Position numbers and translations under genes: made by a program
Shown: one piece after another, positions 505 to 2,041 of the stretch
Numbering within the stretch: the stretch's first letter is position 1
How the letters are laid out: each line of letters starts with the position of its first letter
Virus record (IMG/VR): IMGVR_UViG_3300013426_000031
Source: a virus
Length of the DNA: 64,000 nucleotides
Reading direction: 5' to 3' (one strand)
The notes under the pieces: generated by a model
Databases searched by the model: none
What the model was told of the DNA's origin: nothing
What the model saw: the letters and a program-made list of their open reading frames with translations, nothing else

Positions 505-2041
505 TTATTTATTCATAAGACGATAAAGAACTTGGACCATTTCCTCGCGCGTCATAAACTTTTTATACATTTTACGACCTTTATCATCGCCTTTTACTAA
601 TCCATTGCCTTCCGCCCAGCTACGAGCATCAGCAGACCAAGAACTAGCATCCTTTTGCGCAAGTTCAGTTAAATAATTATTCATCATTTCATTAAATCTT
701 TCTTGAGTCATATTTTCGTCTTCCTCCTCTACTCCTAATAATTGATTTACCTTTTCGGCAATCTCATAATGTTTATTATATAAATATTCACCCGGACATG
801 ATTTAGACGTATTAAACCATCTATGAACTGTCATATTCTACTCTTCTGGATGACCAATTAAATTTTTATCAGCTTTCCATTTAAGTGATTTTATATTATT
901 ACGCTTGCAAATATCAGCCAATAATTTAATTAAAGAATTAAACGCTTTATCCGTAATTTTATAAGGCGATGTAGTATCGCTAGCTACTTCGATAGTAATA
1001 GCCCGATTGTCATTACTCGCACTACTGGAGCACCAAGAACGATCTTTTTCTTCTACGTACATGCCTATTCTACCATCTGGTCCAATGCCATAATTAGAAG
1101 AAGCTTTGTAAGAAGCGGGCGCGAATATGCTACCAAGAGTTTCAACTGAACATTGTCCAACTACACAATGGATAGTAACCGTATCAATTACGTGATTACG
1201 AGGGCTGGTGCGATTTGGGCTTATCTATGTGTAATTCACTAATGGACTATTGGTTTTACCATATCCATATTCATTTGAAGATGGTTCGCTAATTGTTTCA
1301 TTATCACTCACTCCTGGATTATATATAAAACCAAGGAAAGTATATCCAGAGCCAGCGCCCCAATTACCATTTCCTTTTTTGCGTGTAGCATTCCAGAAGG
1401 GATTTTTACTACCCCAACCACTTTCCGATGTTATAATTTCTGTTGGACTTATTACTTTTTCTACAATGGCTACGTGGCCGACACCATCGCTACCTTTTTT
1501 AGTAGCACCACCTTGCCATACCATGCAAGCACCAAGTTTAGGCTCCTGCCCCATAGGAATACCAGTATTATTATATTCGGGAAATCTTTCTGCATTTACG
1601 GGGCTTAAATATTTACAATAGCCCCAATTGCCTATTTCGTTAAATCTTCCGTATGCGTCATTCTGTTACTTTAAGACCTTAAAAATAAGGCGGATAGGAC
1701 GTTAATCCTATCTCTATGGTTTCATATTTAGATTATAGCCATAGTTCAGACTGTATATTACTTCCTTAATGGAAGAACTCACTTCAATAATAATATTACT
1801 ATTATTATCCCGCAGTCGTTAAGGTTTCTCAATTAAGAGTCTTACCTCGGTCTGAAGTGTCTCCACCCTTTAACCGATATAGTGAGTTATGGGCATTTTA
1901 AAACCCCACGCAGTTCGATAAGACGTCATTCTAGGCATCTGTAGGATTCCCTTTTATAGCATATGAATAACCGCCATTGCCAACAGTGATATAGTATTTA
2001 TTGCCAGCTTCTGGACGTGTTGTTCTCATTTTAAATGCCAT
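505..2041 (-). CDS. endolysin: CHAP + amidase_2 (PGRP-like) + C-terminal SLH-like domain, split by an intron; exon2 has 2 in-frame TAG
   Basis: Fragments 1225..1554 (CHAP His region GHVAIVEKV), 838..1062 and 505..834 (amidase_2 ending CPGEYLY, then an SLH-like SWSADARSWAEGNGLVKGDDKG) are in one frame joined by TAG at 1222-1224 and 838-840. The CHAP Cys region (NWGYCKYL) lies upstream of the first ATG with no start codon. A short RBS-preceded ORF at 1925..2041 ends in a 9-nt sequence (AGAATGACG) that is repeated at the start of the downstream frame. Confidence 0.6.
1667..1924 (-). other. putative group I intron in the endolysin gene (boundaries +/-9 nt)
   Basis: About 257 nt of stop-rich structured sequence between the two coding parts. 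Candidate P7 pairing AACGACTG / ACAGTCTG and P9-like hairpins are present. Junctions carry the duplicated AGAATGACG. Confidence 0.45.

Follow-up and report, generated by a model that had tools for sequence, protein, structure and literature searches.

The stretch of viral DNA that we analyzed (IMG/VR record IMGVR_UViG_3300013426_000031), whose full 64,000 nt we call the window, encodes an endolysin with CHAP and Amidase_2 domains. The gene is interrupted, three codons past that for the predicted catalytic cysteine, by a 244-nt insert with no open reading frame (ORF), which is very probably a group I intron. A free-standing gene resembling homing endonucleases lies between phoH and the lysin. 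All lysin and intron features are on the minus strand, and coordinates are those of the 64,000-nt stretch (Table 1). An earlier note, written from the sequence of this DNA, had proposed that a group I-like intron without an ORF splits the endolysin gene. This proposal was supported by a 244-nt insertion relative to an intron-less relative, a covarying fold, and a match to a covariance model built from other introns. The exact junctions differ from those that the note had drawn.

Table 1. Features of the lysin locus and the suppressor tRNA gene in the 64,000-nt window
Feature	Position	Strand	Remarks
Free-standing homing-endonuclease-like gene	2110..2859	-	Between phoH (ends 2855) and lysin; 249-codon open frame
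Ribosome-binding site AAGGAG	2054-2049	-	7 nt 5' of ATG 2041; read from sequence
Endolysin gene (CHAP + Amidase_2)	2041..505	-	Interrupted by 244 nt at 1902..1659
Endolysin exon 1	1903..2041	-	Met1-Gly46 and first base (U) of Tyr47 codon; holds Cys44 (NCVG)
Endolysin exon 2	505..1658	-	Stop TAA 507-505; holds His108
ORF-less group I intron (very probable)	1659..1902	-	244 nt; first base after 5' splice-site U (1903) to omega-G 1659
P1	1891..1906	-	Exon GGGU (1906-1903) with internal guide GCCC (1894-1891); U·G wobble at cleavage site; 8-nt loop
P3	1776..1888	-	AACUCAC 1888-1882 with GUGAGUU 1782-1776; encloses P4-P6, P7 5' strand, P7.1
P4-P6 domain	1823..1877	-	P4 1877-1873/1851-1847; P5 1868-1855, GAGA loop; P6/P6a 1846-1823
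P7	1748..1819	-	A-(C bulge)-GACUG 1819-1813 with CAGUCU 1753-1748; pseudoknot with P3
P7.1	1786..1809	-	10-bp hairpin, GUAA tetraloop, between P7 and P3 3' strand; subgroup IA-type peripheral element
P8 hairpin	1761..1775	-	CUUCC/GGAAG; 5/5 pairs compensatory
3' domain	1677..1744	-	P9 1744-1714, P9.1 1712-1693, P9.2 1690-1677
Suppressor tRNA, anticodon CUA	24545..24622	-	U1·U72 mismatch, G73

Automated gene calls break the lysin into fragments of 36, 109, 74, and 109 amino acids because the gene contains one intron and three recoded TAG codons, one in exon 1 (1933-1931) and two in exon 2 (1227-1225 and 840-838). From the ATG at 2041, the frame of exon 1 reads MAFKMRTTRPEAGNKYYITVGNGGYSYAIKGNPTDA up to the first TAG, continues with NDVLSNCVGF, and then meets a TAA at 1900-1898. 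The earlier note had described a 49-codon ORF preceded by a ribosome-binding site. Both the site and the ORF are real; the length is 36 codons to the in-frame TAG (codon 37) or, with TAG read as sense, 47 codons to the TAA, 48 counting the stop. The second frame starts at 1665, about 230 nt further on, reads (Q)NDAYGRFNEIGNWGYCKYLSPVNAERF..., and extends to 505. The note was right that this conserved CHAP frame lacks a start codon, as none occurs before the ATG at 1554, and wrong in placing the catalytic Cys within it, at GNWGYC. Because NCVGYAYGR of the joined protein lines up with QCTWYAYNR in 9eum_A, a solved peptidase C51 domain, we assign the predicted CHAP nucleophile to Cys44 in NCVGY, encoded by exon 1. 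The joined protein has 430 amino acids and matches CHAP (PF05257) over residues 42 to 126 (4e-11) and Amidase_2 (8e-19) in Pfam. Cys44 from exon 1 and His108 from exon 2 are invariant in the homologue alignment, and only the spliced product combines the Cys-His pair of a CHAP (peptidase C51) domain in one polypeptide with the PF05257 match. With the exact junction known, the real 430-amino-acid enzyme can be annotated.

To place the junction, we used the joined frame (...DVLSNCVG-Y-AYGRFNEIG...) as a query, which returned 1,368 homologues, many of them 70 to 76% identical over 95 to 100% of the CHAP domain. The closest, P0001, is 94% identical and is encoded without an intron on L001, a gut metagenome contig. 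The homologues read ...DVLSNCVG/YAYGRFNEIG continuously across the junction (marked here and below by a slash), and an alignment of 14 of them has no gap there. V40, L41, N43, C44, V45, G46, A48, G50, R51, F52, N53, E54, and I55 are invariant in this alignment, and Y47 and Y49 are nearly so. The comparison with intron-less homologues that the earlier note had suggested thus gives a continuous alignment of the fused protein, at NCVG/YAYGRF rather than at the junction it had predicted.

The DNA comparison gave the boundaries to the base. L001 and the window share the phoH-lysin synteny, and by blastn and alignment we found that the window carries exactly 244 nt extra, 1902..1659. L001 reads AAC TGC GTA GGT TAT GCG TAT GGT CGT TTT where the window reads AAC TGC GTG GGG T-(244 nt)-AC GCA TAC GGA AGA TTT. 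In the RNA, the junctions are GGGGU/...AAUG/ACGCA, with boundaries 1903/1902 and 1659/1658. We chose the T/AC junction because it is the sole in-frame choice that restores the Tyr47 codon and obeys the rule of a U ending the 5' exon and a G ending the intron; G 1659, the omega-G, directly precedes the ACGCA of exon 2. The predicted spliced junction is GUGGGGU/ACGCAUAC, that is, GAACUGCGUGGGGU/ACGCAUACGGAAG. The in-frame UAA (1900-1898), one codon beyond the splice site, halts translation of unspliced RNA. A scan of IMG/VR for the same site found only L092, in which an intron of the family described below interrupts a different CHAP lysin at the identical codon; exon 2 there reads ACGCAAGTGCAAGATTTAATGAAATT, (Y)ASARFNEI. 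L001 itself has an in-frame TAA at 2015-2017 (lysin codon 141), where the window has AAA, and the conserved frame continues beyond it.

The earlier note had bounded the intron differently, by a duplicated AGAATGACG, with NPTDAQ fused to NDAYGRFNEIGNWGYC... and the catalytic Cys in GNWGYC; in RNA, this junction would read GCCUAG/AAUGACGCA. The window does contain the 9-mer at two positions and no more, 1932-1924 and 1664-1656, which lie 268 nt apart, and the fusion is in frame. However, the copies are not the junctions. Judged by the intron-less allele, the upstream copy is exon 1 sequence 21 nt before the true 5' splice site. The downstream copy spans the 3' splice site: the last six intron bases, AGAAUG, which the intron family conserves at its 3' end, run into the ACG of exon 2. 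Fusion at the repeat would yield NPTDAQ/NDAYGRF and lose VLSNCVGY, of which V40, L41, N43, C44, and V45 are invariant in the 14 homologues and Y47 nearly so. In the alignment to the solved C51/CHAP domain, the lost Cys44 falls on its QC(T)W nucleophile motif. Any site within the 9-mer that gives the fusion, such as one after UAG, also violates the 5'-exon-U/intron-G rule. The repeat is statistically weak as well: two or more copies arose in 6 of 100 shuffles of the window, and other exact repeats of 8 to 9 nt occur within the same 551 nt. We therefore regard a junction at AGAATGACG as extremely unlikely. Separately, we rejected AGAATGACG as the target-site duplication of a transposon, as its copies lie off the insertion boundaries and terminal inverted repeats are lacking.

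The predicted structure of the insert is that of a group I ribozyme. Its unconstrained minimum free energy fold (-66.1 kcal/mol, z = -4.0) was matched in stability by 0 of 200 shuffles and on its own recovered P1, P3, P4, P5, P6, P7.1, P8, P9, P9.1, and P9.2. The P7-like pairing of ACGACUG with CAGUCU to which the earlier note had pointed is also present; the two strands form P7, crossing P3, and have P7.1, the P3 3' strand, and P8 between them. P7 is the presumed guanosine-binding helix. Its bulged C next to the pair G1817-C1749, at intron positions 86 and 154, agrees with the classical R and S elements, as in the G264-C311/A263 arrangement of Tetrahymena. The terminal hairpins, likewise seen at the outset, are P9, P9.1, and P9.2. 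They are followed by a family-conserved tail, AAAGUAACAGAAUG, which terminates at the omega-G; AAAGUAACAGNNUG/ stands at the 3' end of most family members. Subgroup classes of group I introns are set by P2, P7.1, and P7.2 (PMC3984707). The window copy has one hairpin (P7.1) and no second between P7 and the P3 3' strand, and it has no P2. Because of this single hairpin and the lack of P2, we call the modeled intron IA-like and assign no subgroup such as IA2. The internal-guide region at 1892-1902 (UUUAAAAUGCC) is 91% complementary to the lysin start-codon region at 2029-2039 (GGCAUUUAAAA); this pairing could compete with P1, or it may reflect chance in AT-rich sequence.

The insert belongs to a family. 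We scanned IMG/VR with the pattern AACGACTG-N45-75-ATAYAGTCTG and recovered more than 120 viral loci, among which about 30 distinct sequences match the layout of the window intron, P7-P7.1-P3'-P8-P7'-P9-P9.1-P9.2-AAAGUAACAG..G. Ten members are ORF-less and full length. In all 10, the exon ends in ...GGU/ (GAU/ in L018) and is followed by a loop and then GCC (GUC), with a U·G pair in P1. The guide covaries with the host exon, giving G-C, U-A, or A-U at position -4 and A-U at position -2 in L018. Many family copies carry an endonuclease ORF inside P6.

We measured covariation in two alignments. The first, A3, was made with MAFFT only from nine full-length introns and scored with a structure that we had drawn. 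In it, 88% of cells are paired, compared with 33 to 39% when the partner is slid by 1 to 3 columns, and 39 of 61 pairs are changed on both sides (0 of 500 shuffles as high). In place of a full-length model from A3, we then used a core covariance model of 161 positions, R1, built from eight members other than the window with a structure from RNAalifold. R1 matches the window end to end over 1891..1743 (129.9 bits, E = 3.9e-27). In the second alignment, A6, in which 16 distinct core sequences were aligned to R1, 96.8% of cells are paired, compared with 30 to 45% in slid controls, and 36 of 44 pairs are compensatory, including three of P4 and two of P7 (again 0 of 500 shuffles as high). All seven P3 pairs are changed on both sides (98% of cells paired), as are all 10 of P7.1; P4 is 100% paired, and compensatory changes affect 4 of 5 pairs in P5 and 5 of 6 in P6. 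P7 is paired in 100% of cells of the 16 sequences, its compensatory pairs being G-C to A-U in L083 and A-U to G-C in L070. The G-C pair beside the bulge is invariant in these 16 sequences, and L070 has A as the bulge. In the 3' domain, as aligned in A3, P9 is 100% paired (4/6 compensatory) and P9.1 94% paired (6/7 compensatory). The insert has the conserved P3-P4-P5-P6-P7-P3'-P8-P7' core, with the P3/P7 pseudoknot and covariation.

R1 also reached introns of established class. It weakly matched the core of the IA2 intron within the Streptococcus thermophilus phage 2972 lysin gene (L123 25338-25473; 36 bits, E = 2.8e-6) and an intron in L121 that is positive for the Rfam group I model RF00028 (E = 0.009), and these matches tie the family to recognized group I introns. 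In all, 66 matches in 65 loci belong to this large gut-phage family, whose introns could be annotated with R1. Neither strict motif searches nor R1 with filters off found further family copies in the 64-kb window; the next-best match had 17 bits, with most of the model deleted. A first intron, as implied by the heading of the earlier note, did not turn up in these searches. An exact 18-mer scan of IMG/VR gave one distant relative, L002, and blastn of 1600-1960 against GenBank phages gave nothing. With tblastn, the CHAP domain matched GenBank phages at 37% identity or less, with no split matches, and there is no close relative with an annotation. A metagenome scan with AAGTAACAGNNTGACGC, a query too unspecific for the purpose, gave 0 of 119 loci with the family signature.

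Several points weigh against a group I intron. RF00028, which has P1 to P9 and the P3/P7 pseudoknot in common with the window intron, gave no match in 1500-2150 (651 nt) even at E ≤ 10, and an Rfam scan of the whole window at gathering thresholds gave no intron match. P1 has only 4 bp and P10 about 1 bp, and several relatives are stronger (8-bp P10 in L047). Finally, A6 was fitted to a model structure, which favors pairing. As to the last point, P7 lies outside the R1 structure, so the fit of A6 did not involve it, and A3, aligned with MAFFT only, leads to the same conclusion. As to RF00028, it misses all members of the family and yet finds other introns in the same loci, for which reason we give no weight to its lack of a match in the window. 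The Rfam scan that the earlier note had suggested as a check would have falsely dismissed the intron, because the miss is family-wide. We read it as a limit of the Rfam model, given that R1 links the family to the IA2 intron and the RF00028-positive intron. The search thus exposed a sizeable gut-phage group I intron family that is invisible to Rfam.

The insert could alternatively be a decayed, non-splicing remnant or another kind of inserted element, with the lysin a pseudogene. The short P1 and P10 and the missing Rfam match fit such a view, as do the lack of an ORF, a nonsense TAA in the neighboring endonuclease gene, and the TAA in the lysin of the intron-less L001, which indicates that defective alleles circulate. 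In contrast, all core helices are intact, and the R1 score of 130 bits falls within the range of the other members (98 to 169). Both exons keep the reading frame and all invariant CHAP residues. We also compared the window with L244, a locus from an independent sample, and found 0 substitutions in 1.5 kb of lysin and intron, compared with 14 in the adjacent 1.8 kb. Last, at the true boundaries there are neither terminal inverted repeats nor a target-site duplication. A remnant is improbable on this evidence.

The lysin could also be made without RNA splicing, by ribosomes bypassing the 244 nt as in T4 gene 60 or from halves that assemble as separate polypeptides. The stop right after the take-off region (GGG UUU UAA) is superficially like that of gene 60. 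However, no matching landing codon precedes ACGCAUAC, and the 244-nt gap is about five times as long as known bypasses. In exon 2, neither a start codon nor a ribosome-binding site precedes residue 82. Bypassing also does not explain a covarying group I fold that is common to dozens of loci in unrelated genes. We found this the least credible of the alternatives, with almost no chance of being correct. A spliced group I intron with boundaries 1902..1659 remains our reading.

The three in-frame TAGs of the lysin are not gene ends, because the window comes from a TAG-recoding phage: it encodes a tRNA(CUA), and when TAG is read as sense, ORFs of at least 200 codons take up 50.7 kb of the DNA instead of 35.6 kb. 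TAG recoding has been described for gut phages (PMC9523058, PMC10879173). The tRNA(CUA) is needed for the three lysin TAGs and for six in the endonuclease gene, and phoH/PIN is also split by one TAG. The U1·U72 mismatch and G73 of this tRNA resemble Gln identity elements. The 94%-identical L001 protein has Lys opposite two of the lysin TAGs. TAG is probably read as Gln.

According to our model, which follows established group I chemistry, the intron would fold after transcription into its P3-P9 core, and exon GGGU and guide GCCC would form P1. An external guanosine bound in P7 would attack after U1903. The freed exon 1 would then attack after omega-G 1659, joining ...GUG GGG U to AC GCA UAC... 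and completing the Tyr47 codon. With the phage tRNA(CUA) decoding the three TAGs, the spliced mRNA would give the 430-amino-acid CHAP and Amidase_2 endolysin. Unspliced RNA would give only a 47-amino-acid peptide with Cys44 and without His108. Because the stop in unspliced RNA separates these two residues, splicing would be required for an active enzyme. Decoding of the three TAGs would be required as well.

Since 2000, phage lysin genes have been known to contain group I introns, and the biological picture is therefore unchanged. A passage of PMC10980517 that cites Foley 2000 states that half of the CHAP-type endolysin genes in S. thermophilus phages have a group IA2 intron. As in that system (Foley et al. 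2000, PMC111580; phage 2972, AY699705; PMC10980517), the window has a group I intron in a CHAP endolysin gene, and intron-containing and intron-less alleles coexist. The phage 2972 intron also shares with it the R/S core, GUAACGACU... and AUAUAGUCU. In contrast, the phage 2972 intron follows lysin residue ~200 and that of the window lies at the catalytic Cys motif. From our reading of its sequence, the phage 2972 intron carries small ORFs and, between P7 and P3', a pair of candidate hairpins (P7.1 and P7.2), whereas that of the window lacks both an ORF and P2 and has a single hairpin. A blastn comparison of the two introns found no similarity, the relation being visible only to the covariance model. 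The window case is thus of the same kind as the known phage-lysin introns, at a different site and in an unrelated, uncultured gut phage.

A second parallel is Staphylococcus phage DW2, in which a putative ORF-less group I intron of 349 bp was reported in a CHAP tail-hydrolase gene (PMC4124061); we group with it the introns of staphylococcal Twort/K-like phages. Like the window intron, the DW2 intron is an ORF-less insertion in a CHAP peptidoglycan hydrolase gene with an in-frame stop after the 5' junction, and it was likewise found through comparison with an intron-less homologue. It differs in its host gene, which encodes a virion tail hydrolase, and in its phage lineage and sequence. PMC4124061 gives no structural or covariation support for the DW2 intron, whereas the window intron has both.

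We next considered how the intron may have reached the lysin. About 780 nt between phoH and the lysin, comprising the endonuclease gene, have no counterpart in L001. The frame matches phrog_559 (1.5e-31), phrog_9084 "homing endonuclease" (1.1e-24), and phrog_7140 "intron encoded nuclease" (1.2e-20), and the L002 intron contains an ORF with matches to these phrog families. It is also 31 to 36% identical, over nearly its full length, to P6-embedded ORFs of at least eight family introns (E = 1e-26 to 1e-32). The gene lies about 200 nt upstream of the ORF-less intron, and both are missing from L001. In L244, which is 99.6% identical to the window, we found the same phoH-endonuclease-lysin-intron layout; of the 15 mismatches between the two, none falls in the lysin gene or intron.

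For group I introns that lack an ORF, collaborative (trans) homing by means of neighboring free-standing endonucleases has been described (reviewed in PMC3984707), as for T4 mobE/I-TevIII (PMC2790892). The window resembles these systems in having an ORF-less intron ~200 nt from a free-standing endonuclease gene, with both absent from the close relative L001. It differs in that its free-standing gene is clearly homologous to ORFs that other members of the intron family carry within P6 and in that the window copy has a nonsense codon. We suggest tentatively, from these sequence comparisons, that the intron may have been acquired and kept through DNA-level homing of this trans, or collaborative, kind, with co-conversion of both elements. 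Arguing against it, the endonuclease frame of the window has, besides its six in-frame TAGs, an in-frame TAA (2535-2533), and no ATG, GTG, or TTG start was found anywhere in 2859-2110. The adjacency of endonuclease and intron could also be coincidental. L244 has CAA in place of the TAA and is fully open there, and the sequence suggests that the window endonuclease may be inactive in this strain. Even so, an ORF-less intron beside a free-standing homologue of the family endonuclease is a testable case for a collaborative-homing origin of mobile introns. More doubtful still is a joint reading in which the locus would be a snapshot of mobile group I introns forming or coming apart, with an endonuclease that targets the codons of the lysin active site and co-conversion of both elements, and with TAG decoding and splicing, two steps of lysin synthesis that the phage would control at the RNA level, together possibly acting as a lysis timer.

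The endonuclease has two paralogous LxGQKFxxLxV...W.C.C[DE]CG...SCGC modules. A TAG in the first corresponds to CAA in the second (L244), which fits TAG being read as Gln. The in-frame TAAs of this lineage, one in the lysin of L001 and one in the endonuclease gene of the window, both fall at conserved positions and could represent nonsense polymorphisms, errors of assembly, or occasional read-through. After the endonuclease stop codon and ahead of the lysin ribosome-binding site is a perfect 13-bp inverted repeat (AGAAGUAAAGAAU and AUUCUUUACUUCU, 2071-2100), with a U run after it on the minus strand. This AT-rich repeat was not among the terminators called; over 400-3000, predicted promoters and terminators were no more numerous than in shuffled sequence.

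Some loci contain two or three family introns: L047 (7229-7434 and 7784-7938), L121 (4532-4786 and 5047-5197), L016 (5801-5958 and 6136-6290), and L070 and L096, with three matches each. In the multi-intron loci whose flanks we read, the host gene looks tape-measure-like, with several family introns inside a single such gene, and L047 and L121 have RF00028-type introns close to the family introns. R1 also gave a weak match (20.9 bits, E = 0.0065) at 2135-2352 of L123, the genome of Streptococcus phage 2972, in the gap between two coding sequences annotated as terminase large subunit (orf3 and orf4). This model match suggests a further group I intron there. Three contigs (L243, L245, and L246), each from a different ENA assembly, start inside the intron, at window position ~1734/1729, just 3' of the conserved AUACAGUCUGAAC, which suggests that assembly graphs break at the repeated intron core.

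Elsewhere in the window, a full-length ROOL RNA (RF03087; 318 bits, E = 1.9e-72) at 25453-26040 on the minus strand adjoins a cluster of tRNA genes. Odd tRNA-like matches occur at 26622-26716, 44120-44174, 47428-47489, and 48529-48601 on the same strand. They include a 95-nt Rfam tRNA match in which a long insertion follows the anticodon arm, two short matches (55 to 62 nt) that were not called by ARAGORN, and an ARAGORN tRNA-Phe with the unusual anticodon AAA.

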